Positions 1,543-61,162 of a stretch of DNA of 64,000 nt are shown piece by piece. A model generated the notes under the pieces. The model saw nothing but the letters and a program-made list of their open reading frames with translations, was not told where the DNA came from and ran no database searches. A program made the position numbers and the translations under genes. Positions within the stretch are counted from its first letter, which is position 1, and each line of letters opens with the position of its first letter. The stretch lies in assembly GCF_058153355.1 (NCBI RefSeq), contig NZ_CM177019.1, one strand, 5' to 3'.

Positions 1543-2376
1543 TCATTTTGCTGATAACGCTGACGGATAGTGCTTCGCCACAATGTCATTCATCTTATCC
1601 ACCAGATCCAGTCGCTTGAATGTGATGTGTCCACTGCCTTTCTGGTAATAGCGGATGACAAATAAATCGTCATTAAATACCTGCTCATGCGGGTGAGCAC
1701 TAACGAAGTCCATAAACCGAATCGCAACATCATGCCGGTTATCGGGAATGGCCTTCCCATCCAGCAGATAGAACATCCGTTCCAGATCGGCAAGCTGATC
1801 TCGCCGCCAGCCCCAGTGCAGGCTGTAACCCCATCGGTCATGCTTCACCAGATTGTTAACGATAATCTTCTTACCGAAATAACAGGGATTATTGGTTTTG
1901 TAATCCCAGCTCAATCCCTTAAATACATTGATAATCCCACGTTCGAAAACGTCATGCTTATTGTGGTGGAGTTGTTCAAAGGTACTCAGGATGTTGGCTT
2001 CGCTAATCGCCGGGAGATCGCCCTCCTCCAGGTTCTTTGCCCACTGACTGCGGGCTTCGGCATCCATCAGAGTCAACATCCCGGACTTCAGCATGAGATC
2101 GCGCCAGATGCTGCGATCGATATTGCGGGTGATCGCCGACATCGCTTTGTCGGTTGGTTGCATCAGCCAGCAGTCAAAGGCATATCCATTACGCATTCCC
2201 CAGGTTCCAGCCACATCACCGCCAATACTGGATGTCAGACTGGAGATATCATCCAGTTTTTGGATTAGCGTCGCTATCAGCTTCAGTGCGCTATCACGTC
2301 CTGTGACGATACGCTCAATATTGGTCGAGCGAATTATCTCGTTGTGATCGGTTAAGACTTCAGCTTCTGTTTGCAT
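1543..2376 (-). CDS. Hypothetical protein, 277 aa, function unknown; lies between the McrB-like gene and the divergently transcribed hsdM
   Basis: Longest ORF in the interval and same strand as the McrB-like gene 358 bp downstream. I see no nucleotide-binding or methyltransferase motif. The plus-strand ORFs overlapping it (1687..2268, 2093..2347) look like antisense shadows. Confidence 0.45.
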   Translation of the reverse strand: MQTEAEVLTDHNEIIRSTNIERIVTGRDSALKLIATLIQKLDDISSLTSSIGGDVAGTWGMRNGYAFDCWLMQPTDKAMSAITRNIDRSIWRDLMLKSGMLTLMDAEARSQWAKNLEEGDLPAISEANILSTFEQLHHNKHDVFERGIINVFKGLSWDYKTNNPCYFGKKIIVNNLVKHDRWGYSLHWGWRRDQLADLERMFYLLDGKAIPDNRHDVAIRFMDFVSAHPHEQVFNDDLFVIRYYQKGSGHITFKRLDLVDKMNDIVAKHYPSALSAK

Positions 2377-2682
2377 AATCTTTCATCCGTAAAAAAATAC
2401 ACTCGCCGTTAGTAGCAGACGGATTATCCTCTGGTGAAAGATTGGGTAAATAATGAGATTGAAAATCGGGAAGGTGACTCGCAATAAATTATCTGATCAC
2501 CTACGGATGGACGATGGGCATATAAAATAGCCTCCTGACTCAAACGGTGAATGCTGAATAAGATGCACTAACAATCTGGTACTGAATCCCCTCCTCACCG
2601 TCATACAAATCTGAAAAACCAAAAAACTTCCGGTAAAATCCCGGCAAAAGCCGACGTTAAAAACACATTCAAAGGATAAAAA

Positions 2683-4239
2683 ATGACCAGTCTTCAGCAG
2701 CGCGCGGAGCTTCATCGCCAAATCTGGCAAATTGCTAACGATGTCAGAGGTTCGGTCGATGGATGGGATTTTAAGCAATACGTTCTGGGCGCGCTTTTCT
2801 ACCGTTTTATCAGCGAAAATTTTTCCAGCTATATTGAAGCCGGTGATGACAGCATCTGTTATGCGAAACTGGATGACAGCGTAATTACTGATGACATTAA
2901 AGACGATGCCATCAAAACCAAAGGCTACTTCATCTACCCAAGTCAGCTTTTCTGCAACGTAGCTGCGAAAGCAAATACCAATGACAGACTGAACGCAGAT
3001 TTAAACAGCATCTTCGTTGCTATCGAAAGTTCTGCTTACGGTTACCCTTCAGAAGCTGACATCAAAGGTTTGTTTGCTGATTTCGATACCACCAGTAACC
3101 GCCTGGGTAATACCGTTAAGGATAAAAATGCCCGCCTGGCCGCGGTTCTGAAAGGGGTTGAAGGGTTAAAGCTTGGCGACTTTAACGAACATCAGATTGA
3201 CCTGTTCGGCGATGCCTATGAGTTCCTGATTTCTAACTATGCGGCGAATGCCGGTAAGTCAGGCGGCGAGTTCTTTACACCGCAGCACGTCTCTAAGCTG
3301 ATTGCACAACTGGCTATGCACGGGCAGACCCACGTTAACAAAATCTACGACCCGGCAGCGGGTTCCGGTTCGCTGTTGTTGCAGGCTAAAAAGCAGTTTG
3401 ATGACCACATCATCGAAGAAGGTTTTTTTGGTCAGGAAATCAACCATACGACCTATAACCTGGCGCGTATGAACATGTTTTTGCACAACATCAACTACGA
3501 CAAGTTTGATATCAAGTTGGGCAATACGCTGACTGAGCCGCACTTCAGAGATGAAAAACCGTTTGACGCCATCGTATCTAACCCACCGTATTCGGTGAAA
3601 TGGATAGGCAGCGATGACCCGACGCTGATTAACGATGAACGTTTTGCCCCGGCTGGCGTCCTGGCCCCCAAATCAAAAGCTGACTTCGCCTTTGTACTAC
3701 ATGCGCTGAACTATCTTTCTGCCAAAGGTCGTGCTGCGATTGTCTGCTTCCCGGGTATTTTTTACCGTGGCGGCGCAGAGCAGAAAATCCGTCAGTATCT
3801 GGTTGATAATAACTATGTCGAAACCGTGATTTCACTGGCTCCGAACCTGTTCTTTGGCACCACCATTGCCGTCAATATTCTGGTGTTGTCTAAACATAAA
3901 ACCGATACCAAAGTTCAGTTTATTGACGCCAGCGAACTATTCAAAAAAGAGACTAACAACAACATTCTGACCGATGCCCATATCGAACAGATTATGCAGG
4001 TATTTGCCAGCAAGGAAGATGTTGCTCATCTGGCGAAATCTGTCGCGTTTGAGACCGTTGTCGCTAATGACTATAACCTGTCGGTAAGCAGCTATGTGGA
4101 AGCGAAAGATAACCGCGAAATTATCGATATCAGTGAGCTGAATGCTGAGCTGAAAACCACGGTCAGCAAAATCGACCAGTTGCGTAAAGATATTGATGCG
4201 ATTGTGGCTGAAATTGAAGGCTGCGAGGTGCAGAAATGA
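2683..4239 (+). CDS. hsdM: Type I restriction-modification system DNA methyltransferase subunit M (type IC-like)
   Basis: 518-aa ORF with an N6-adenine methyltransferase NPPY motif ([11 protein letters not shown]) and the AdoMet-binding region ([11 protein letters not shown]). RBS aaaggat sits upstream of the ATG at 2683. The stop overlaps the hsdS start (ATGA at 4236-4239). Confidence 0.9.
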
Positions 4240-5390
4240 ACGAGTTGAGTTATCTGGAAAAATTACTGGATGGGGTTGAGGTTGAGTGGTTGCCATTGGC
4301 TAAAGTTTGTCGTTTAATAAACGGGAGAGCATATAAGCAAGAAGAACTGCTTTCCAAAGGCAAATATCCAGTATTAAGAGTCGGTAATTTTTTTACTAAC
4401 CAAAATTGGTATTACTCAGATTTAGAATTAGATCAAGACAAGTATTGTGATAACGGTGACCTTTTATATGCTTGGTCCGCATCATTTGGTCCAAGAATTT
4501 GGCATGGGGGTAAATCTATTTACCATTATCACATATGGAAAGTGGTTCCAGATTCGAATCTTATTTGTAAACAGTTTCTATATTACTTGTTACAATGGGA
4601 TACTAAAGCACTTAAAGATGCACATAGCACTGGTTCTACTATGATGCACATCAGCAAAACTACAATTGAAAAAAGGTTAGTCCCCATCCCCTGCCCGGAT
4701 AATCCGGAAAAATCCCTTGCCATCCAGTCTGAAATCGTTCGGATTCTGGATAAATTTACTGCACTTACCGCTGAGCTTACCGCTGAGCTTAATATGCGAA
4801 AAAAACAGTACAACTACTATCTCGACCAGTTACTGAATCTTGAGGGTAGGGAAAATACTCGAGAAATGAGGATAGGTGATATTTATGATTTTCAGTATGG
4901 AACAGGCAATACAATTCCTAAATCTGGAGGGCAATATCCTGTTTATGGTAGCAACGGGATTGTAGGCTCCCATGACAAATATAACAGCGAAGACTCACCT
5001 GTTATTGGCCATATAGGTGCTTACGCAGGAATCGTTAACTGGGGCCAGGGTAAGCATTTTGTTACATACAACGGAGTTATTTGTAGGCACAAATCGAAGG
5101 AAGTTCTTCAAAAATACGCCTACTATTTATTACTTTTACAAGATTTCGGTTCAAAATCTAATAGTGCATCACAGCCTTTTGTTTCATATAACATATTAAA
5201 TGCTCCTATTGTTTTGGTTCCCCCTTTACAAGAGCAAGCTCGTATCGTCGCAATACTCGATAAATTCGACACCCTGACCAACTCCATCACCGAAGGTCTT
5301 CCGCGTGAAATCGAGTTGCGCCAGAAACAATACGAGTACTATCGTGATTTACTGTTCAGTTTCCCAAAACCTGAAACTCTCAGTAATTAA
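4236..5390 (+). CDS. hsdS: Type I restriction-modification system specificity subunit S (type IC-like, two target-recognition domains)
   Basis: 384-aa ORF translationally coupled to hsdM. It has two AT-rich variable regions separated by a conserved central region containing TAEL repeats, plus a conserved C-terminal region ([30 protein letters not shown]), as in EcoR124-type HsdS. Confidence 0.85.
4767..4790 (+). repeat. Two tandem copies of a 12-bp repeat ACCGCTGAGCTT (encoding TAEL-TAEL) in the central conserved region of hsdS
   Basis: Direct reading: accgctgagctt accgctgagctt at 4767-4790. In type IC HsdS, the copy number of this repeat is known to set the spacer length of the recognition sequence. 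Confidence 0.85.
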
Positions 5391-5511
5391 TTGACCATTA
5401 TTACAGACCGGACCATCTTAATATCCGGTCAGTATATAGACTATTTTTTACACGCCGGAAGTCACCATTAACCCCCTTCCGGCCCTTGCCAGACGGCACA
5501 AAGGATGCGCT

Positions 5512-8500
5512 ATGACTCATCAAACACACACCATTGCTGAATCCAATAACTTTATCGTTCTTGATAAGTACATCAAAGCTGAGCAAACAGGCGACAGCTA
5601 TCAGAGCGAATCGGACCTGGAACGTGAACTGATTCAGGACCTGCAAAATCAGGGCTATGAATTTATACCCGTAAAATCACAGTCAGCGATGCTGGCCAAC
5701 GTTCGGGAACAGCTTCAGAGCCTCAATGGTGTGGTGTTTAATGACAGCGAGTGGCGGCGTTTCACGGAGCAGTATCTGGATAACCCGAGCGATGGCATTC
5801 TGGATAAGACCCGTAAAATCCATATCGACTATATTTGCGACTTTATTTTTGATGACGAGCGACTTGAGAACATCTATTTGATAGATAAAAAGAATCTCAT
5901 GCGCAATAAGGTGCAGATTATCCAGCAGTTTGAACAGGCGGGTTCCCACTCTAACCGCTATGATGTCACGATCCTGATTAATGGCTTACCACTGGTACAA
6001 ATCGAACTGAAAAAGCGCGGCGTGGCGATTCGTGAGGCTTTCAACCAGATACATCGTTACAGTAAAGAGAGTTTTAACAGCGAAAATTCCCTGTTTAAGT
6101 ATCTGCAACTGTTTGTCATTTCTAACGGCACCGATACCCGTTACTTTGCCAACACCACAAAGCGCGATAAAAATAGTTTTGACTTCACCATGAACTGGGC
6201 GAAATCAGACAACACGCTGATTAAAGACCTCAAAGATTTTACCGCTACCTTTTTCCAGAAACATACTCTGCTTAATGTTCTGGTGAACTACAGCGTGTTC
6301 GATATTAGCCAGACGCTACTGGTGATGCGACCGTACCAGATTGCCGCCACCGAACGAATCTTATGGAAAATCAACAGCTCCTATAAAGCGAAAAACTGGT
6401 CTACCCCCGAAAGCGGTGGCTTTATCTGGCACACCACCGGTTCCGGTAAAACCCTGACCAGCTTTAAAGCTGCGCGTCTGGCAACAGAGCTGGACTTTAT
6501 TGATAAAGTCTTCTTCGTGGTCGACAGAAAAGACCTCGATTACCAGACCATGAAGGAATATCAGCGTTTTTCGCCAGATAGTGTTAACGGTTCGGAAAAT
6601 ACCGCAGGCCTGAAACGAAATCTGGATAAGGACGATAACAAAATTATCGTCACCACTATTCAGAAACTTAATAACCTGATGAAAGCAGAAAGCGACCTGC
6701 CTGTATACAATCAGCAAGTGGTGTTTATATTTGATGAATGTCACCGCAGCCAGTTTGGAGAAGCGCAGAAAAACCTGAAGAAGAAATTCAAACGCTATTA
6801 TCAGTTTGGTTTTACCGGCACACCTATTTTCCCGGAAAACGCTTTAGGCTCAGAAACGACCGCCAGCGTATTTGGTCGTGAATTGCATTCGTATGTGATT
6901 ACCGATGCGATTCGTGATGAAAAAGTGCTCAAATTCAAGGTGGACTATAACGATGTGCGGCCACAATTTAAGTCTTTAGAGACAGAAACCGACGAGAAAA
7001 AACTGAGTGCGGCTGAAAATCAGCAGGCGTTTCTTCATCCCATGCGTATACAGGAAATTACGCAATATATTCTGAATAACTTCCGCCAGAAGACCCACCG
7101 TACTTTCCCAGGTTCCAAAGGCTTTAATGCCATGCTGGCAGTGAGTAGCGTGGATGCCGCGAAAGCCTATTACGCGACGTTTAAACGGTTACAAGAGGAA
7201 GCCGCTAATAAATCTGCTACCTATAAACCACTACGTGTTGCGACAATCTTCTCCTTTGCCGCTAATGAAGAACAAAATGCCATTGGTGAAATTTCCGATG
7301 AAACTTTTGATACCAGCGCAATGGACAGCAGTGCTAAAGAGTTTCTCGACGCTGCAATTCGTGAATATAACAGCTATTTTAAAACTAACTTCAGTACCGA
7401 CAGTAACGGTTTTCAGAACTACTATCGTGATTTAGCCCAACGGGTTAAAAATCAGGATATCGATCTGTTAATTGTCGTTGGGATGTTTTTAACCGGCTTC
7501 GACGCTCCAACATTGAACACGCTATTCGTCGATAAAAACTTGCGTTTTCACGGCCTGATGCAGGCATTTTCCCGCACCAACCGCATTTATGACGCCACTA
7601 AAACCTTCGGTAACATCGTCACTTTTCGGGATCTGGAACGCTCAACCATTGATGCCATAACGCTGTTTGGTGATAAAAATACCAAAAATGTGGTGTTAGA
7701 AAAGAGTTATGCCGAGTATATGGAAGGCTTTACAGATGCTGCCACTGGTGAAGCTAAACGCGGCTTTATGGCAGTAGTTTCAGAACTGGAACAACGGTTC
7801 CCTGACCCTGCCAGTATTGAAAGTGAAAAAGAGAAGAAAGACTTCGTTAAACTGTTTGGTGAATACCTGCGCGCCGAGAACATCCTGCAAAACTATGATG
7901 AATTTGCCACGCTGAAAGCCCTGCAACAAATCGATCTTAGCGATCCTGTTGCGGTAGAAAAATTCAAAGCAGAACATTATGTGGATGATGAAAAGTTTGC
8001 TGAATTACAAACGATTCGTCTCCCTGCTGAACGTAAGATTCAGGATTATCGTTCGGCCTATAACGATATTCGTGACTGGCAGCGCCGCGAGAAAGAAGCT
8101 GACAAAAAAGAAAAATCAACCACTGACTGGGATGACGTGGTTTTTGAGGTCGATTTGCTGAAGTCTCAGGAAATAAACCTGGATTATATCCTTGGACTGA
8201 TTTTCGAACACAACAGACAAAACAAAGGTAAGGGCGAAATGACCGAAGAGGTCAAACGCTTAATTCGTTCGAGCCTTGGGAACCGTGCCAAAGAAGGCCT
8301 GGTGGTCGATTTTATTCAACAAACGAACCTGGATGATTTGCCGGATAAAGCCAGTATCATTGACGCGTTCTTTATCTTTGCTCAACGCGAACAGCAACGT
8401 GAAGCAGAAGCGTTGATTAAAGAAGAAAATCTCAATGAAGAAGCAGCGAAACGCTATATTCGCACGTCTTTAAAACGCGAATACGCCACCGAAAATGGCA

Positions 8501-8628
8501 CAGAATTAAACGAGACGTTACCAAAACTTAGTCCGTTAAACCCGCAATATAAAACGAAAAAACAGACGGTTTTCCAGAAGATCGTCGCGTTTATTGAGAA
8601 GTTTAAAGGTGTAGGCGGGCAGATATAA
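5512..8628 (+). CDS. hsdR: Type I restriction enzyme endonuclease/helicase subunit R (type IC-like, 1038 aa)
   Basis: 1038-aa ORF with SF2 helicase motifs (Walker A TTGSGKT, DEAH-like [10 protein letters not shown]). The length matches type IC HsdR such as EcoR124I as I recall it. A 121-bp gap after hsdS leaves room for its own promoter. Confidence 0.9.
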
Positions 8629-8852
8629 TGTATTAATCCGAACCTGATCTGGCAGATAGCTGTCAGATCAGGACTGAGCTAATACAAATTAATATCGAAC
8701 CGAAAATACCAACGCCTGTACCAACATTTTTCGTTTGCGATGGGTTGAAATTGGTTGGCTCTGAGAGAGTTAAAATAGCGAGAAAGATAGGTAACTAATG
8801 GATCCCAGACACAAAAAAAGCCGCCCTTGAGCGACTCGATTTGCATACGATG

Positions 8853-8937
8853 TGGTGCCGAAGGCCGGACTCGAACCGGCACGTATTTCTACGGTTGATT
8901 TTGAATCAACTGCGTCTACCGATTTCGCCACTTCGGC
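8853..8937 (-). tRNA. leuX: tRNA-Leu (anticodon CAA)
   Basis: The minus-strand sequence GCCGAAGTGGCGAAATCGGTAGACGCAGTTGATTCAAAATCAACCGTAGAAATACGTGCCGGTTCGAGTCCGGCCTTCGGCACCA has acceptor stem, D-loop, anticodon loop UUCAAAA (anticodon CAA), the long variable arm of a class II tRNA, T-loop GGTTCGAGTCC and 3' CCA. Confidence 0.92.
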
Positions 8938-9132: not shown

Positions 9133-10218
9133 ATGTCGATGATAAAAAGCTATGCCGCAAAAGAGGCTGGCGGCAAACTGGAAGTTTATGAGTACGATCC
9201 CGGTGAACTGAAGCCACAAGATGTCGAAGTGCAGGTGGATTACTGCGGGATCTGCCATTCCGATCTGTCGATGATCGACAACGAATGGGGATTTTCACAG
9301 TATCCGCTGGTTGCCGGGCATGAGGTGATTGGGCGCGTGGTGGCGCTCGGGAGCGCCGCGCAGGATAAAGGTTTGCAGGTCGGTCAGCGTGTCGGGATTG
9401 GCTGGACGGCGCGAAGCTGTGGTCACTGCGATGCCTGTATTAGCGGTAATCAGATCAACTGCGAGCAAGGTGCGGTGCCAACAATTATGAATCGCGGCGG
9501 TTTTGCCGAGAAGTTGCGTGCAGACTGGCAATGGGTGATTCCACTGCCGGAAAATATCGATATCGATTCCGCCGGGCCGCTGCTGTGTGGTGGTATCACG
9601 GTCTTCAAACCACTGTTAATGCACCATATCACTGCCACCAGCCGCGTTGGGGTAATTGGTATTGGCGGGCTGGGGCATATCGCTATAAAACTTCTGCACG
9701 CAATGGGATGCGAGGTAACGGCCTTTAGTTCTAATCCGGCGAAAGAGCAGGAAGTGCTGGCGATGGGTGCCGATAAAGTAGTGAATAGCCGCGATCCGCA
9801 GGCACTGAAAGCACTGGCGGGGCAGTTTGATCTCATTATCAACACCGTCAACGTCAGCCTCGACTGGCAGCCTTATTTTGAGGCGCTGACGTATGGCGGT
9901 AATTTCCATACAGTCGGCGCGGTCCTCACGCCGCTGTCTGTTCCGGCCTTTACGTTAATTGCGGGCGACCGCAGCGTCTCTGGTTCAGCAACAGGTACAC
10001 CTTATGAGCTGCGTAAGCTGATGCACTTTGCCGCCCGCAGCAAGGTTGCGCCGACTACCGAACTGTTCCCTATGTCGAAAATTAACGACGCCATTCAGCA
10101 TGTACGCGATGGTAAAGCGCGCTACCGAGTGGTCCTGAAAGCCGACTTCTGCTCCCTTTGCCGGGTGCCTGTCGCCCGGCTTTTAAATCTCTTTGGAAGG
10201 CGTCTCGCAATCTGCTGA
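9133..10218 (+). CDS. ahr: NADPH-dependent aldehyde reductase Ahr (zinc-dependent alcohol dehydrogenase family); the ORF runs about 22 codons past the expected C-terminus
   Basis: ORF starting [14 protein letters not shown] with the Zn-ADH motif GHEVIG and the NAD(P)-binding GxGxxG (GVIGIGGLG). The expected end ...[10 protein letters not shown] is followed here by [22 protein letters not shown] before the stop. Confidence 0.8.
10160..10184 (+). terminator. Putative rho-independent terminator hairpin (GCCGGG..CCCGGC then TTTT) at the ahr 3' end
   Basis: Inverted repeat gccggg/cccggc followed by a T run, seen directly. It lies inside the extended ahr reading frame. Confidence 0.45.
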
Positions 10219-10281
10219 ATTTAGCGGTGAAGAGTGCGCAGCCGTTGCCTATACTCCAGGCAGGAAACTGGAGGAAATCTC

Positions 10282-19411: not shown

Positions 19412-20190
19412 ATCTCTTACAGAAATGGTAAAGAAGGCATAACTCCCCGAGAAATACTGGCTAAGAAGCCTTTATCTGGTTGTTCTTCTTTATTGATTAA
19501 AGGAAGGTCATCCAAATCGCCCAGCAAATACGTATTTTTTGCCTGCCAGTCAATCATCCATATTTTCAACAGTGGATAAGCCAGACCGCCCGTAATCCCG
19601 GATATCACCACCAACGCACACATGCGATAAAGCATACCGTGGTACGTTAAAGTTGAGCGAAAACGAATACGCCCATCATTCAGTGACAGGTTGCTCATAA
19701 AATGGTTTCGCAACGACACCGTTAAATAACTGGTGCTAACAGCAATCCCAAAATAATAGATTAACTGCGCGATTATCATTTTACGTTGCATTTCCATAAA
19801 TTGCTGTAAATTCTCAATGTCATCATTTGCATATACAGAACTATCATACGCATTTAATATTTGATCGAAGATAATATAACCAGCAACAGCGAGAAAAGGC
19901 AATAAAGCTAAAAATGCGAGAATGGCATATTTTATACAATACGTAGTATCTAATTTCACCTTGAAACGATGTATACCGAAACTGGTATTGCTCCAGAGAA
20001 AACTCATTACCAGACTATATAAAGTACCATTAAAAATACCAATGGAAACAATACCAACTATTGCCATCAGAACCATAGATATAATAACACTACTTGAACT
20101 ATTGGCATGTAGCATCTTTGTCGAGATAAAGAAAACAGTCCCCATCCCAACGGCCATTAAAATCGGCAAGAAAAAGGTCACCCACCAGAG

Positions 20191-21616
20191 TAATGCCGAT
20201 CAGTTAAGGATCAGTTGACCGATCCAGTGGCTGTGTAAGAATCCGGAAACGCTCACTTGTTTCCGGATTTTTTTATGCACATTGGACAGGCTCTTGATCT
20301 GGTATCCCGTTACGATTCTCTGCGTAACCCACTGACTTCTCTGGGGGATTACCTCGACCCCGAACTCATCTCTCGTTGCCTTGCCGAATCAGGTACTGTA
20401 ACGCTACGCAAGCGCCGTCTTCCCCTCGAAATGATGGTCTGGTGTATTGTTGGCATGGCGCTTGAGCGTAAAGAACCTCTTCACCAGATTGTGAATCGCC
20501 TGGACATCATGCTGCCGGGCAATCGCCCCTTCGTTGCCCCCAGTGCCGTTATTCAGGCCCGCCAGCGCCTGGGAAGTGAGGCTGTCCGCCGCGTGTTCAC
20601 GAAAACAGCGCAGCTCTGGCATAACGCCACGCCGCATCCGCACTGGTGCGGCCTGACCCTGCTGGCCATCGATGGTGTGTTCTGGCGCACACCGGATACA
20701 CCAGAGAACGATGCAGCCTTCCCCCGCCAGACACATGCCGGGAACCCGGCGCTCTACCCGCAGGTCAAAATGGTCTGCCAGATGGAACTGACCAGCCATC
20801 TGCTGACGGCTGCAGCCTTCGGCACGATGAAGAACAGCGAAAATGAGCTTGCTGAGCAACTTATAGAACAAACCGGCGATAACACTCTGACGTTAATGGA
20901 TAAAGGTTATTACTCACTGGGACTGTTAAATGCCTGGAGCCTGGCGGGAGAACACCGCCACTGGATGATACCTCTCAGAAAGGGAGCGCAATATGAAGAG
21001 ATCAGAAAACTGGGTAAAGGCGATCATCTGGTGAAGCTGAAAACCAGCCCGCAGGCACGAAAAAAGTGGCCGGGACTGGGAAATGAAGTGACAGCCCGCC
21101 TGCTGACCGTGACGCGCAAAGGAAAAGTCTGCCATCTGCTGACGTCGATGACGGACGCCATGCGCTTCCCCGGAGGAGAAATGGCGGATCTGTACAGTCA
21201 TCGCTGGGAAATCGAACTGGGATACAGGGAGATAAAACAGACGATGCAACTGAGCAGGCTGACGCTGAGAAGTAAAAAGCCGGAGCTTGTGGAGCAAGAG
21301 CTGTGGGGTGTCTTACTGGCTTATAATCTGGTGAGATATCAGATGATTAAAATGGCGGAACATCTGAAAGGTTACTGGCCGAATCAACTGAGTTTCTCAG
21401 AATCATGCGGAATGGTGATGAGAATGCTGATGACATTGCAGGGCGCTTCACCGGGACGTATACCGGAGCTGATGCGCGATCTTGCAAGTATGGGACAACT
21501 TGTGAAATTACCGACAAGAAGGGAAAGGGCCTTCCCGAGAGTGGTAAAGGAGAGGCCCTGGAAATACCCCACAGCCCCGAAAAAGAGCCAGTCAGTTGCT
21601 TAACTGACTGGCATTA
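20191..21616 (+). mobile_element. Insertion sequence IS4 (1426 bp) with 18-bp imperfect terminal inverted repeats and a 12-bp target-site duplication
   Basis: Left end TAATGCCGATCAGTTAAG; right end reverse complement TAATGCCAGTCAGTTAAG (16/18 match). Direct repeats CACCCACCAGAG at 20179-20190 and 21617-21628. Confidence 0.9.
20275..21603 (+). CDS. insG: IS4 transposase (DDE family)
   Basis: 442-aa [30 protein letters not shown]..., spanning almost the whole element. Confidence 0.9.
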
Positions 21617-22249
21617 CACCCACCAGAGCCCTTTCATAGAGCAATTAAAACTAAATCTTACGCCGTTGAGACTGGTCATTAAGGCCTGATGACGCAGTCC
21701 TTTTGCTGCCATAAATATAAGCAAAACCAACAGTAACAAAGTCAAAACACAACCAACAAGCGGCATATCTGCTGACACTGTCATTAAGATTGCGAAATAG
21801 AAAAAAACAAAAACAAAAACAAGACAACTAACAAAAACATTCCCACCGGTAATTCCATAAGAAAATCGTTGTCCGTTAACTTCCATATTAGCATAAAGAT
21901 AACGCTTACATTTCATTAATGCCCATGGTAAATAGATACCTAACGTTATAATCGTTAACAACACATTCACCACACAAATAAGAAAATATCTCTCACCTGT
22001 ACCATGAAAAACAAACGAATGGGACGGAACATCCATTTCATTAATAACTTGAGCCATAAAAAATCCCTGAATTAAAAAATCCATTGATATAACTTATATA
22101 TACAGACAGTAAAATGTTCTGCCACGTTACAATACTCTTATCAGTAATAGGCTGGCAAAAACTTTATTACTTTATAAGTCGCTTGCGCACGTAAGAAGAG
22201 AGTGGTATTAAACAAATGTATAATTACTTTATTTTTATTGGGTTAAACT

Positions 22250-42997: not shown

Positions 42998-43288
42998 TCA
43001 CTCATCCAGCCGTTTTGTCGCGTCTTCATAAACGGCTGAGTTCTCTCTCTTACCAATAGCTATCACCAACACGAGTAACTCTTTATCATTGACCTGATAG
43101 ACCAGGCGATATCCCAGTGTGCGAAGCTTAATTTTGTAGCAGTCCGGCAAATCCCGTAGTTTAGCCGATGGATTGCGCGGCCTTTTCAGCACATCCCCAA
43201 GCTTTTTTTTAAATTGTTCCCGGACTTTCACGCCCAGTTTTTGCCACTCCTTCAGCGCCCGCGGATCAAAAGCCAGTTCATAGTTCAT
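42998..43288 (-). CDS. relE: RelE/ParE-family mRNA interferase toxin
   Basis: 96-aa ORF from MNYELAFDPRALKEWQKLGVKVREQFKKKL... ending ...GKRENSAVYEDATKRL; by recollection close to E. coli RelE. Its start overlaps the antitoxin stop by 11 nt, and its stop codon abuts the nrdG stop codon. Confidence 0.85.
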   Translation of the reverse strand: MNYELAFDPRALKEWQKLGVKVREQFKKKLGDVLKRPRNPSAKLRDLPDCYKIKLRTLGYRLVYQVNDKELLVLVIAIGKRENSAVYEDATKRLDE

Positions 43289-43520
43289 CCAGTCGGACCT
43301 TAATGGCCTCCTGTGGGTTGGCCAGTCGTTCCCTGACAGTGCGTAACAAGGCTTCTTCACTATCACTGACAGTGAGCGTTTTTACCGGCATTCGTCCATT
43401 TTCCGCAACGTACTGAAACAGCAGCCGCACTGCTTCAGTAGGCGTGATATTTAATTTTTCCAGCACCGCATAAGCCTCATTTTTCAGTTTGTCATCCAGG
43501 CGGACGTTAAGTGTGGCCAT
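43278..43520 (-). CDS. relB: RelB/DinJ-family antitoxin
   Basis: 80-aa ORF, MATLNVRLDDKLKNEAYAVLEKLNITPTEAVRLLFQYVAENGRMPV..., resembling RelB (ribbon-helix-helix N-terminus), upstream of and overlapping the toxin gene. Confidence 0.85.
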   Translation of the reverse strand: MATLNVRLDDKLKNEAYAVLEKLNITPTEAVRLLFQYVAENGRMPVKTLTVSDSEEALLRTVRERLANPQEAIKVRLDEL

Positions 43521-43710: not shown

Positions 43711-44100
<390 letters not shown>

Positions 44101-48887: not shown

Positions 48888-49403
48888 TCAATTAACAAAG
48901 GTTAATTTGACTCGTTTAGATACGCAAAAATAGGGGATCCAGATTGCAAGATGGATGATACTTTTCAGAAGCTCCCATGCATCTGTCAATTCAAATGAGG
49001 CATTAAGAAAGTGCATTGTCCCCCAAATATCAGCCACAATGAATGCAAACAGTGACAGAAGAAGGGCAATATAATACTGTGGAAGCTGGCGTTTTTTGTT
49101 AAAAAACAAATAAGTAGTATAAATCAACAGCAGAAACAAAACGGCAAATCCGGCGGTTTCCAGATAAAGTGCCGTCCTGAGCGGTTCTTCGTAAATTACG
49201 TGAGTAAGCCCCCAAGTATGGATAATTGAATACGCGTTCGCAAGAATACCAAGCACTAAACCAATTGCCGGCAGAAATAGCCAGCCGCCAATCCCTGTAA
49301 GCTTTTTATCCGCACAACTTTTACAATAATCGTCAGGTGGTAAAACAGCCACACCACAGTTTTTACATGTTGTTTGTAATTCTTCGCCGTCCTTCACCCA
49401 CAT
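48888..49403 (-). CDS. Hypothetical AT-rich membrane protein with N-terminal zinc-ribbon (CxxC-N10-CxxC) and about four predicted TM helices (171 aa)
   Basis: Complete ORF MWVKDGEELQTTCKNCGVAVLPPDDYCKSCADKK... followed by hydrophobic segments. By eye it is clearly more AT-rich than its neighbours. I do not recall a gene at this position between fbp and yjfF in K-12. Confidence 0.55.
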   Translation of the reverse strand: MWVKDGEELQTTCKNCGVAVLPPDDYCKSCADKKLTGIGGWLFLPAIGLVLGILANAYSIIHTWGLTHVIYEEPLRTALYLETAGFAVLFLLLIYTTYLFFNKKRQLPQYYIALLLSLFAFIVADIWGTMHFLNASFELTDAWELLKSIIHLAIWIPYFCVSKRVKLTFVN

Positions 49404-51457: not shown

Positions 51458-52960
51458 TTACGCCGCAATGGCGTTCATGATCGCCGGAACGGAAAGCTCT
51501 GCCAGCGGGATCTCCGCAACCTGTTTGCGATCGCGCATGATAATCACCCGGTCGGCATAGCCCACCAGCTCTTCCAGTTCGGAGGAGATCACCAGCAGCG
51601 CCAGACCATCGGCGCATAGCGTTTCAATCAGGCGGATGATCTCAGCGTGGGCACCAACATCAATGCCGCGCGTTGGCTCGTCGAGGATCAGAAATTGTGG
51701 ACGAGTCAGCAGCCAGCGAGAGAGCAGCACTTTTTGCTGATTGCCACCGGAGAGAAACTCAATCGGCTGTTCGGTGGAAGGTGTGCGAATGCCAAGCTGG
51801 CGGATAAAACGTTCGGCAATCTCTTGCTGTTCTTTACGGGAAATCGGCCGTAGCCAGCCGCGCTGGGCCTGGAGAGCGAGGATGATATTTTCCCGCACTG
51901 AGGCGGCGGCGATGATGCCATCAGTTTTCCTGTCTTCCGGGCAAAAGCCGATGCCCAGTACCGAAGCCTGATGTGGCGATCGTAGCGTTTGCGGTTTTCC
52001 TTTGATCAGCGCCGTGCCGCTATCGGCTGGTTTGATGCCGAAGATCACTTCAGCGGTTTCTGTCCGCCCTGATCCCAGCAAACCTGCCAGCCCGACGATC
52101 TCACCAGGACGTACTTCCAGATCAAACGGTGCGATCGTTCCTTTTTTGCCGTAATTTTTGAACGCGGCAACGGGTTTGTCGCTCAGCAATGTTCGTCCGG
52201 CACGCTGTAGCGCGTGGGTGTCCAGCTCGCGCCCCAGCATCATTTTTACCAGTTCGATCTGCGGTAGCTCGCAGGTTTCCCGACAGCCTACGAAACTGCC
52301 GTTGCGTAAGACGGTGATCCGATCGCTGACCTGATAGACCTGATCGAGAAAGTGAGTAACGAAGATCAGGCTGACGCCGCGATCGCGCAACTGACGCATC
52401 AGGCCAAACAGTAACTCTACTTCCTGAGTGTCGAGGCTGGCGGTGGGTTCATCGAGGATCAGCACTTTGGCGGAGAGATCGATGGCCCGGCAAATGGCGA
52501 CGATTTGCTGCATCGCGACTGAAAAGCGGTTGAGCGGTTCCCGCACGTCGAGGGAGAAACCGTAAGATGCCATCAGTTCGGTGGCGCGCTTTTCCATCTC
52601 TTTACGGCGTAGAAGGCCGAAACGTTTGGGTTCGCGACCTATGAATAGATTATCAGCGACCGACATATTGGGTAGCAGGTTGACTTCCTGATAGACGGTG
52701 CCGATGCCGAGTTGTTGTGCGTGGGCGGTATTTTTCGGTGAGATAGTCTGGCCTTCCAGCCAGATGGTGCCACGATCGGCGTGGTAGACACCGGTTAATG
52801 CTTTGATTAGCGTTGATTTACCTGCTCCGTTTTCACCGAGCAGCGCCATGATTTCACCACGGCGCAGGCTGAAATCAACGTTGTCTAACGCTTTGACGCC
52901 GGGGAAAAATTTACTTAATCCTTCGGTGTGGAGGATTTCCTGGTGTTGGTTAGTATTCAT
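51458..52960 (-). CDS. ytfR: Galactofuranose ABC transporter ATP-binding protein YtfR (tandem ABC domains)
   Basis: 500-aa ORF with two Walker A motifs (GENGAGKST, GLLGSGRTE) and ABC signatures. Confidence 0.92.
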   Translation of the reverse strand: MNTNQHQEILHTEGLSKFFPGVKALDNVDFSLRRGEIMALLGENGAGKSTLIKALTGVYHADRGTIWLEGQTISPKNTAHAQQLGIGTVYQEVNLLPNMSVADNLFIGREPKRFGLLRRKEMEKRATELMASYGFSLDVREPLNRFSVAMQQIVAICRAIDLSAKVLILDEPTASLDTQEVELLFGLMRQLRDRGVSLIFVTHFLDQVYQVSDRITVLRNGSFVGCRETCELPQIELVKMMLGRELDTHALQRAGRTLLSDKPVAAFKNYGKKGTIAPFDLEVRPGEIVGLAGLLGSGRTETAEVIFGIKPADSGTALIKGKPQTLRSPHQASVLGIGFCPEDRKTDGIIAAASVRENIILALQAQRGWLRPISRKEQQEIAERFIRQLGIRTPSTEQPIEFLSGGNQQKVLLSRWLLTRPQFLILDEPTRGIDVGAHAEIIRLIETLCADGLALLVISSELEELVGYADRVIIMRDRKQVAEIPLAELSVPAIMNAIAA

Positions 52961-52984
52961 AGTTTCCCCCGTTGTAAAGCGTGC

Positions 52985-53090
52985 GCCAGATAAGACACAA
53001 CAGCGTCGCATCAGGCATCTCGCACAACCGCCGGATGCGGCATAAACGCCTTATCCGGCGGCGTACAAGTCGGCATCAGGTATTGATGTC
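52985..53090. repeat. REP/BIME elements between ytfR and ytfQ
   Basis: gacacaacagcgtcgcatcaggc ... gccggatgcggcataaacgccttatccggcg match the REP consensus. Confidence 0.7.
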
Positions 53091-53092
53091 CC

Positions 53093-54049
53093 TCAATACC
53101 CCATATTTTTCTTCTTCTCTAACTCTTCTTTTGCGGTATCAGGCAGGTAAAGGGTGGACTTGGTCAGCGTCAGCTTTTCAGGCATCGTGCCGTCTTTTTT
53201 GTATTTCTCCAGCGCGTCAAAAGCAGGGCCTGCCATATTCGGCGTCAGTTCAACGCTGGCGTTCGCTTCGCCATCAATCATCGCTTTGTAGATGTCCGGC
53301 ACGCCGTCGATAGAGCCTGTCAGGATATCTTTGCCCGGTTTCAGGCCCGCTTCTTTAATTGCCTGAATTGCACCAATCACCATGTCATCGTTATGGGCGT
53401 AAACCATGCAGATGTTTTTGCCGTTGTTTTCCGCTTTGATAAAGCTCTCCATCACTTCTTTGCCTTTGCTGCGGGTGAAGTCACCTGACTGCGAGCGGAT
53501 AATTTTGATATTTGGCGCATTCTTAATGGCTTCGGCAAAGCCTTTCTTACGGTCAATGGCGACGCTGGCCCCAACGGTGCCCTGCAGCTCCACCACGTTA
53601 CACGGTTTGCCATTCACTTCTTTTACCAGCCAGTCACCGATCAATTTGCCTTCGAGGATGTTGTCGGCAGTGACGGTGGTCATATAGAGAGATTTGTCTT
53701 TCACATCGATGGAACGGTCAAGCAAGAAGACCGGGATTTCGGCATCTTTCGCCTCTTTTAATATCGGCTCCCAACCGGTCGCTACCACCGGAGCGATAAA
53801 GATCGCATCCACCCCTTGCGCGACGAAGGAACGTACCGCTTTAATCTGGTTTTCCTGCTTTTGCTGACCATCGGCAATTTTCAACGTAATTCCGCGCTTT
53901 TCGGCTTCACTTTTCGCCACATTGGTTTCTGCGGCGCGCCAGCCGGATTCCGATCCGACCTGCGAAAATCCTACGGTTAATGGAGCAGCCAACGCCATAG
54001 ACGACATGGCTGCCGAGACTGCAGAGACTACAAGTAAGCGTTTCCACAT
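53093..54049 (-). CDS. ytfQ: Galactofuranose-binding periplasmic protein YtfQ
   Basis: 318-aa ORF with a signal peptide (MWKRLLVVSAVSAAMSSMALA) and a periplasmic sugar-binding fold. Confidence 0.92.
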   Translation of the reverse strand: MWKRLLVVSAVSAAMSSMALAAPLTVGFSQVGSESGWRAAETNVAKSEAEKRGITLKIADGQQKQENQIKAVRSFVAQGVDAIFIAPVVATGWEPILKEAKDAEIPVFLLDRSIDVKDKSLYMTTVTADNILEGKLIGDWLVKEVNGKPCNVVELQGTVGASVAIDRKKGFAEAIKNAPNIKIIRSQSGDFTRSKGKEVMESFIKAENNGKNICMVYAHNDDMVIGAIQAIKEAGLKPGKDILTGSIDGVPDIYKAMIDGEANASVELTPNMAGPAFDALEKYKKDGTMPEKLTLTKSTLYLPDTAKEELEKKKNMGY

Positions 54050-54358
54050 AGGGTTGTCCTCGTCGGGGTAATTATTATTGGTGAAAAGATGTTCGCGAAA
54101 AAACTATAGACAATTCGTTATGTAACGGATTGCGTTACATCACACTTCAAAAAAGTAAATAAAACGTTAATCACAAGTTTGTAATCGCTTTCATCTCACT
54201 ATGAAAAATGCGGCTACGGTTATGGATTTTCCTGCTCTGTAAACCTTCTTAAAACTGGCGAAAAAGGAAAATGAAGACGAAAACAAGCGAAGACATTCGG
54301 CGCGAGTTGGCTATAATACTCGGCACTTGTTTGCCACATATTTTTAAAGGAAACAGAC

Positions 54359-54889
54359 ATGAGCTTACTCAACGTCCCTGCGGGTAAAGATCTGCCGGAA
54401 GACATCTACGTTGTTATTGAGATCCCGGCTAACGCAGATCCGATCAAATACGAAATCGACAAAGAGAGCGGCGCACTGTTCGTTGACCGCTTCATGTCCA
54501 CCGCGATGTTCTATCCGTGCAACTACGGTTACATCAACCACACCCTGTCTCTGGACGGTGACCCGGTTGACGTACTGGTCCCGACTCCGTACCCGCTGCA
54601 GCCAGGTTCTGTGATTCGCTGCCGTCCGGTTGGCGTTCTGAAAATGACCGACGAAGCTGGTGAAGATGCGAAACTGATTGCTGTTCCGCACACCAAGCTG
54701 AGCAAAGAATACGATCACATCAAAGACGTTAACGATCTGCCTGAACTGCTGAAAGCACAGATCGCTCACTTCTTCGAGCACTACAAAGACCTCGAAAAAG
54801 GCAAGTGGGTGAAAGTTGAAGGCTGGGAAAACGCAGAAGCCGCTAAAGCTGAAATCGTTGCCTCCTTCGAGCGCGCAAAGAATAAATAA
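54359..54889 (+). CDS. ppa: Inorganic pyrophosphatase
   Basis: 176-aa [35 protein letters not shown]..., with DGDPVDVL. Confidence 0.95.
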
Positions 54890-55237
54890 GTTCTTCTAGT
54901 GCCATAACCCTGAACGCCGGGCTTCGGTTAGTAAGGGTTTTTTATGCCCGCGATAAATAAACTCTCTATTCCCCTATCATTATTCTCAGCGCTTGCAAGG
55001 CTTGAACGGTAAGAACAAGCAAACACGACCACCATTTTGCTGTTCATAGCCGCTTGCTGGAAATTAGCCGACCTCACTCATTCTCACCGTTCAAAGCATG
55101 CCCCCGTTTTACCCCTACGTAATTGTGAACGCCAGCAGAGTTTTTTATGCGTTTACGGATATGGAAAGCGGCTCGGAGAGAAAAGCTAAAGATAGGGAAG
55201 TTACAAAAAAAATCGCGAGATACATCGCATAAAACAA

Positions 55238-55264
55238 CGCCACCCGAAGGTGGCGTGCTTTTAT
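55238..55264. terminator. Bidirectional terminator between ppa and ytfP
   Basis: cgccacccgaaggtggcg hairpin flanked by A/T runs. Confidence 0.6.
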
Positions 55265-55266
55265 TA

Positions 55267-55608
55267 TTACTTATCCCTGTCTAACCAGTCGCCGCTTTCA
55301 ATTAGCTTTAATCCATCGACGGGTCGTTGATAAACGTACATCCATGCACTCCCGTACGGCGTCTGAATCAACTGGCGCGCATATTCACCGCCCCTGGTGC
55401 GCAAGGCATCAAGTTCGGCCAGCGTGGCGTTGTCAATACGATAAACTTCACCGTGTACTGTTCCGTTCCCCGGAACTGCGCCTGGATAGTGGCCCAGGCT
55501 ATACAACTGGTAGTTATCGATACTGAAATCGCCCAGTAACTGGGCATTGGTCATCCAGTGACTGTTGCCTTGTTTGTGGCGTAAACTGCCGTAGACAAAT
55601 ATTCGCAT
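55267..55608 (-). CDS. ytfP: Gamma-glutamylcyclotransferase family protein YtfP
   Basis: 113-aa ORF, MRIFVYGSLRHKQGNSHWM... (YGSL motif). Confidence 0.88.
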   Translation of the reverse strand: MRIFVYGSLRHKQGNSHWMTNAQLLGDFSIDNYQLYSLGHYPGAVPGNGTVHGEVYRIDNATLAELDALRTRGGEYARQLIQTPYGSAWMYVYQRPVDGLKLIESGDWLDRDK

Positions 55609-55610
55609 TG

Positions 55611-61162
<5,552 letters not shown>

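Follow-up and report, generated by a model that had tools for sequence, protein, structure and literature searches.

A chpB relic between ppa and ytfP points to in situ decay of a chpSB toxin-antitoxin module in Escherichia coli

The closest described relative of the locus considered here is the chpS-chpB module (ChpBI/ChpBK) of Escherichia coli K-12, a toxin-antitoxin (TA) pair of the MazEF/PemIK family that in MG1655 lies in the 886-bp spacer between ytfP and ppa (chpS, b4224; chpB, b4225). A second point of comparison is the chromosomal ccdO157 TA system of E. coli, whose decay Mine et al. are said to have described in 2009, with inactivating mutations reportedly found in many independent lineages. 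The ytfP-ppa site itself has been characterised as a locus that carries chpBS, esiB or neither, at frequencies of 53%, 15% and 32% respectively in 47 genomes (Pastorello et al. 2013, mBio 4:e00206-13, PMC3735183). Presence or absence of chpSB at this site is therefore already published and common, and the chpB relic that we describe here is a minor new detail, which we did not find reported in that paper or in the papers examined that mention chpB and phylogroup.

We analysed a 64,000-nt stretch of E. coli DNA (contig NZ_CM177019.1 of RefSeq assembly GCF_058153355.1), referred to below as the window, which runs in the opposite orientation to that of K-12. The spacer is bounded on the left by ppa (inorganic pyrophosphatase; 54359-54889, plus strand), a 176-aa ORF annotated as ppa in the syntenic strain 2020CK-00188 and in K-12, and on the right by ytfP (gamma-glutamylcyclotransferase family; 55267-55608, minus strand), a 113-aa ORF annotated as ytfP in syntenic records. 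The neighbours beyond these genes are ytfQ (53093-54049, minus strand) and tamB (55611-59390, minus strand), respectively. A sequence-only reading of the window had given the spacer as 54890-55266, 377 bp, which is exact, and had stated correctly that chpS-chpB lies here in K-12. It was also right that the spacer holds no intact chpSB module and no ORF that could match ChpS (83 aa) or ChpB (116 aa) in length, as the longest ORFs touching the spacer encode 44-50 aa. A functional toxin would be an intact PemK/MazF-fold ORF of about 110-116 aa, and the longest ORF in the spacer is one of 50 aa; the 83-aa MazE/AbrB-like ChpS ORF expected upstream of it, and the autoregulatory promoter/operator expected upstream of the antitoxin, are both missing. 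The window falls in the class of the published three-state locus in which both chpBS and esiB are absent; for chpSB this applies to the 64 kb analysed, and a copy may exist elsewhere in the genome.

The spacer is not a blank site: a ChpB-like coding sequence is detectable within it by both blastn and tblastn. The relic occupies 54997-55095 on the minus strand, and its 99 nt correspond to nt 19-119 of chpB (codons 7-40). In a pairwise blastn comparison with K-12 chpB, 77 of 101 positions are identical (76%, E 1e-15), collinear and in the shared orientation, and the local alignment score of 74 was reached by none of 2000 dinucleotide-preserving shuffles (mean 18.6, sd 2.2, maximum 30; z = 24.7). 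When ChpB was searched by tblastn against the whole window, residues 15-38 were recovered at 54% identity (55072-55001, minus strand), while the best ChpS match in all 64 kb had an E value of 2.5 and none lay in the spacer, such that this check of the earlier reading came out differently for the two proteins. Alignment of the spacer to K-12 likewise bore out the missing module and at the same time revealed, by short-word local blastn, three collinear blocks: spacer positions 1-83 on the ppa side at about 90% identity, positions 108-206 (the relic itself) at 76% to chpB, and positions 216-367 on the ytfP side at 86% (132/153), the last including a terminator hairpin. A global MAFFT alignment of the two spacers had placed one large gap opposite chpSB and misplaced the central block, thereby hiding the chpB homology, which was recovered by the short-word local blastn together with a gap-tolerant global alignment. 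Translated in the chpB frame, the relic gives F E R (stop) E (stop) … before the frame changes; it carries three in-frame stops (TGA, TGA and TAA) as well as frameshifts. Significant homology at the orthologous position and in the orthologous orientation, combined with disabling lesions and the loss of expression signals, is what is expected of a decayed TA locus. As a chpB fragment is detectable in the spacer, the difference from K-12 is best described as decay of a formerly present module rather than as a module that was never there, an order of events, loss after presence, that we infer from the remnant.

Two segments of the intact cassette are missing from the window, one on either side of the relic. 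Deletion 1, of about 310 nt, took an operator-like palindrome, the Shine-Dalgarno sequence, all of chpS and codons 1-6 of chpB; alignments to K-12 and to intact cassettes place its junction at a 9-nt filler (55096-55104, minus strand). Deletion 2, of about 220 nt, took chpB from nt ~120 to ~335, roughly the last two thirds, and its junction filler lies at ~54960-54996 (minus strand) in the global alignment to the K-12 spacer, where the match is short and weak. The last chpB codons and stop may possibly be kept there as GGAATA (54972-54967), an assignment in which we have low confidence given so short and weak a match. Between deletion 1 and the ytfP terminator there remains a leader remnant of about 130 nt (55105-55236, minus strand), derived from the ytfP-chpS intergenic region and 86% identical to K-12 over a stretch that includes the hairpin. 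The perfect palindrome GAGTTATACTTTGTATAAC, whose first base varies, lies upstream of chpS in nine of the nine intact cassettes aligned, which represent five Escherichia lineages, four other named genera and one Enterobacteriaceae isolate. It sits about 40 nt upstream of chpS (L012-L014, L016, L038, L047, L056, L074 and L091; positions 1917-1935 of the K-12 locus, L001) and, apart from the ytfP terminator, nothing else in the leader is conserved across Escherichia, Enterobacter, Lelliottia, Kluyvera and Pseudocitrobacter. This palindrome presumably serves as the operator for ChpS/ChpSB, and the window lacks it. The GGAGG Shine-Dalgarno sequence is similarly kept in all nine intact cassettes and falls inside deletion 1 in the window.

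These features are most readily accommodated if a resident chpSB module decayed in situ by two deletions and then drifted neutrally, an explanation that we regard as highly probable. The ancestor would have carried the cassette in the K-12 place and orientation, with the ytfP terminator, a leader of about 210 nt containing the palindromic operator, chpS, chpB and the ppa terminator in succession. One deletion would have taken out the operator/promoter, the whole of chpS and six codons at the start of chpB, and the other approximately the last two thirds of chpB, leaving the distal leader and the 99-nt chpB fragment. This fragment would then have gained stops, frameshifts and about 24% substitutions, and the resulting remnant, with no promoter-like site, start codon or antitoxin, would be inert DNA between the ppa and ytfP terminators. 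The former presence of chpS is suggested by the structure of the cassette elsewhere; 99 nt of coding sequence are left, all from chpB, and no trace of chpS was detected. The window therefore resembles the K-12 module in site, in orientation, in a homologous leader and in a homologous 99-nt stretch of chpB, and differs from it in having no chpS, no operator/promoter and no chpB start, with approximately 70% of chpB deleted and the rest disrupted, so that neither protein can be encoded.

The sequence-only reading had described the spacer as containing only a bidirectional terminator. Such a terminator-like hairpin, placed there at 55238-55264, is indeed present and spans 55237-55256, but the spacer also holds a ppa-proximal hairpin, the chpB fragment and the chpS-upstream leader. 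The hairpin at 55237-55256, found by a terminator scan, is GC-rich (8 bp, 6 of them GC pairs), and A/T runs flank it (55229-55264) so that on each strand the hairpin leads into a U-run. Its folding energies are -19.9 kcal/mol (minus strand, z -3.8) and -17.4 kcal/mol (plus strand, z -5.2), none of 200 shuffles folds as well, and matches of 26-35 nt at 94-100% identity occur in most other Enterobacteriaceae loci. It is most likely the ytfP terminator, terminator-like on both strands, given that ppa has a hairpin of its own (54906-54939, plus strand) followed by UUUUUU (54940-54945). The ppa-proximal hairpin, identified by fold and conservation, folds at -12.4 kcal/mol, no better than shuffles, and its sequence is conserved in K-12 and in Citrobacter amalonaticus (L020), whose short 164-bp spacer matches positions 17-63 of the spacer in the window at 89.6% identity. 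The segment 54906-54945 is probably the ppa terminator, judging from its position and conservation, and wherever chpSB is present the chpB 3' end would face it as well.

The absence of chpSB is not peculiar to this strain: the species has two widespread alleles, and this is one of them. In a set of 5426 complete E. coli genomes (28 Gb), intact chpSB is present in 3100 (57%), and a 166-nt query taken from the central segment of the spacer detects the relic in 2324 (43%), with at least 80% query coverage and nothing annotated there. In the other 3102 genomes all that this query matches is annotated chpB (query positions 38-136, 76%, E 1e-8). The counts of chpSB and relic together account for all genomes but two, and hence a truly empty site appears not to occur in any complete E. 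coli genome. Relic sequences from six E. coli alleles, two esiB alleles included, align gap-free through the relic block with 0.5-15% substitutions among them, indicating deletions as in the window, and all eight relic sequences examined, with the E. albertii type strain and one further Escherichia lineage among them, lack the segments missing from the window. The esiB gene was found in 188 of the 5426 genomes (3.5%), and about 39% have neither chpSB nor esiB. Compared with the published frequencies in 47 genomes, this larger set gives 57% rather than 53% for chpSB, 3.5% rather than 15% for esiB, and about 39% rather than 32% for neither. The published third class was described as lacking both genes, with no mention of a chpB remnant, whereas here the 'neither' allele carries the relic, as do the two esiB alleles examined.

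In those two esiB loci, esiB lies between the relic spacer and ytfP. In both (L004 1004-1416 and 2890-3038; L008 1001-1413), the relic spacer has at its end a diverged ytfP terminator hairpin (AACGCCACCCGCAGGTGGCA), and a second copy of the hairpin adjoins ytfP, so that esiB is bracketed by a duplicated terminator. The short direct repeats with partial inverted symmetry that have been described as flanking esiB (Pastorello et al. 2013, PMC3735183) are probably these terminator copies.

To place these alleles in a wider context, we collected 80 Enterobacteriaceae loci by YtfP, with one genome per species. Both states occur across Escherichia: the relic allele is found in the E. albertii type strain and in the divergent 'E. 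coli' lineage SCPM-O-B-8794, with spacers of 378 bp, and intact chpSB in E. whittamii, Escherichia sp. E1V33, Escherichia sp. MOD1-EC7003 and strain E69. It could be argued that the intact (57%) and decayed (43%) alleles of E. coli have coexisted since before the Escherichia species diverged, and that presence and absence are selectively maintained rather than drifting; such a possibly balanced polymorphism could stem from conflict with the pemIK/kis-kid addiction modules of plasmids, modules that ChpS might be able to neutralise. We regard this idea as unlikely.

Outside Escherichia, intact chpSB occupies the identical site in Enterobacter asburiae, Lelliottia, Kluyvera, two Pseudocitrobacter loci and one Enterobacteriaceae isolate, with ChpB identities of 64-78%, and in these genera as in Escherichia the chpS start lies about 210 nt after ytfP. 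The leader belongs to the chpSB cassette and is lacking in species whose spacers are minimal; in species with neither chpSB nor the relic, matches to the ytfP side of the spacer are confined to the hairpin and its immediate side (spacer positions 334-377). The ytfP-ppa site is an insertion hotspot across the family (L018-L091), with spacers of 87 bp to 3.8 kb and, in other species, unrelated cargo of 0.3-3.8 kb. For example, Salmonella arizonae (L024) has a gene for an Hcp-domain protein followed by a small ORF, a Pluralibacter-labelled metagenome-assembled genome (L062) has a RelE/HTH TA pair together with a methyl-accepting-type protein, and Citrobacter portucalensis (L025) has two large ORFs that by eye appear to be of TonB-dependent-receptor type and beta-propeller type. 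A site that takes cargo as varied as the S. arizonae Hcp-domain protein, the Pluralibacter-labelled RelE/HTH pair and the esiB of E. coli might also once have held another element with a more distant mazF/pemK-type gene, of which the fragment would be a piece, and its identity to chpB is only 76%, below that of the flanks. However, the fragment has the orientation and order of chpB, lying between leader and 3' end as in the K-12 cassette, and the chpS-upstream leader is retained. Among the 80 loci, moreover, its nucleotide matches are confined to relic alleles and Escherichia chpB, with none to the chpB of Enterobacter, Lelliottia or Kluyvera. A foreign source of this kind is therefore very unlikely.

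The divergence of the relic suggests that the decay is old. Against every intact Escherichia chpB the relic differs by 23-24%, while the flanking spacer blocks differ by 10-14% and intact chpB differs between Escherichia species by 3-9%. Between the window and E. albertii the relic differs by 14.5% (85.5% identity), similar to the fourfold-site divergence of its neighbours ytfP and ppa in the same comparison (13-18%). From this high divergence relative to the spread of intact chpB, and this parity with the neighbouring genes, the decay looks old and appears to have happened before the relic alleles of E. coli and E. albertii diverged. The excess of relic divergence over that of the flanks fits an old pseudogene, although it could also mean that a different chpB lineage was the source. 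The junction of deletion 1 (ending …GGGGTAAAACG at the breakpoint) is common to the window, the E. albertii type strain (L017) and E. coli SCPM-O-B-8794 (L015). That the E. albertii type strain has this same junction suggests that the decay was probably one old event, and a single ancient origin of the allele is what the shared junctions would imply. Both alleles may have been passed down vertically, or they may have been exchanged between species by recombination, in a region that is visibly mosaic.

We note several signs of this mosaicism. The spacer is 100% identical to that of strain 2020CK-00188, and identity to this strain in 500-bp windows across 51890-58266 ranges from 94.6% to 100%, with flanks of 94.6-99.4%, swings that indicate a recombination mosaic. 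Another segment peaks at 99.4% identity with a strain other than 2020CK-00188. The tamB gene of the window is unusually divergent, with no complete E. coli genome above 97.6% identity, and its fourfold-site divergence from K-12 is 17.6%, as against 2% for the adjacent ytfP.

The persistence of the relic also bears on whether selection maintains the remnant in some co-opted role, for example as a small RNA or as a 3' UTR or antisense element of ppa. Co-option would explain the presence of the relic in every chpSB-less genome, 2324 in all, and in E. albertii at 85.5% identity, and the 14.5% divergence of the relic between the window and E. albertii is below the 35% at fourfold sites of tamB. We therefore considered whether conservation of the relic between the two species is unusually high. 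It appears so relative to tamB, but not relative to the adjacent ytfP and ppa, whose fourfold divergence of 13-18% in the same pair means that the relic is no more conserved than its surroundings. Furthermore, a promoter scan found no sigma-70-like site within the spacer, and an Rfam scan of 54200-55700 at E values up to 1 gave no match, and hence no known sRNA or riboswitch. RefSeq has no annotation over the relic in any of the listed relic-bearing records. The leader at 55105-55236 was likewise considered as a conserved functional element and rejected, as conservation beyond Escherichia is limited to the terminator hairpin and the now-deleted operator. Co-option is thus highly improbable, and the remnant most likely has no function. 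That the 377-bp spacer is instead an ancestral, never-occupied state, with chpSB inserted in the K-12 lineage and the chpB similarity due to chance, would be in keeping with the short chpSB-less spacers of many Enterobacteriaceae, but the truly minimal spacers, of 87-188 bp in 25 species, have just two terminator regions in common with the window, and the extra ~200 nt of the window match leader and chpB collinearly at 76-86%, with a score that no shuffle attained, and are best seen as cassette debris, making this reading scarcely credible.

The probable decay of a resident chpSB module is one of several differences from K-12 in the window. The claim that TA content in this region is strain-variable is supported both by the distribution of chpSB among the complete E. 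coli genomes and by an extra TA pair near nrdG, where a relBE-type gain had been proposed. This type II pair, absent from K-12, lies between nrdG and cybC at 42998-43520 on the minus strand and consists of an 80-aa RelB-family antitoxin (43278-43520, minus strand; Pfam PF04221 RelB, E 6e-16) and a toxin of the ParE/RelE superfamily, 96 aa from an internal ATG (42998-43288, minus strand; PF05016 ParE_toxin, E 4e-14). The two ORFs overlap by 11 nt, and the ~700-bp segment 42993-43702 that contains them has no match in K-12. TA content thus differs from K-12 at two sites, with one loss by decay and one extra module. The adjacent cybC (cytochrome b562; 43711-44097, minus strand) is a full-length 128-aa ORF covered end to end by PF07361, and is a pseudogene in the K-12 MG1655 annotation.

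Further differences were seen elsewhere in the window. A copy of IS4 (20184-21618), 99.65% identical to K-12 IS4, lies inside yjgN, and the K-12 coordinates on either side of it have 11 bp in common (4480154-4480164), suggestive of a target-site duplication. Between mgtA and ridA, an insertion of 1.28 kb relative to K-12 (31200-32479) encodes an IS110-family transposase of 326 aa (PF01548 and PF02371). The idn (L-idonate) cluster from idnK to idnR (K-12 4490102-4495191) is missing, with approximately 90 bp in its place between ahr and yjgR (10151-10243). A gene for a 171-aa DUF2569 membrane protein (48888-49403, minus strand) lies between fbp and yjfF in a segment of about 600 bp that is absent from K-12. 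Beside the tRNA-Leu(CAA) gene leuX (8853-8937, minus strand), the region 1543-8937 holds a DUF4942 gene and a complete type I restriction-modification system, with hsdM at 2683-4239, hsdS at 4236-5390 and hsdR at 5512-8628. The DUF4942/hsd region has no match in 73 kb of K-12 (4437000-4510000), and what K-12 carries beside leuX is a cryptic prophage and IS elements.

In its general features the chpSB locus resembles ccdO157, being a chromosomal type II TA system with a fixed intergenic position whose state, intact or degraded, varies among strains of one species. Unlike what is reported for ccdO157, it presents a single deleted allele with fixed junctions, found species-wide and also in E. albertii. 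Since RefSeq leaves the relic unannotated, surveys of gene content miss this history of loss. The absence of chpSB from about half of E. coli is that of an old, shared, decayed allele, and the locus offers a clean example of a chromosomal TA module that was probably lost once and whose loss has persisted, rather than one of repeated gain, and bears on the debate as to whether selection maintains chromosomal TA systems or they are simply decaying junk.
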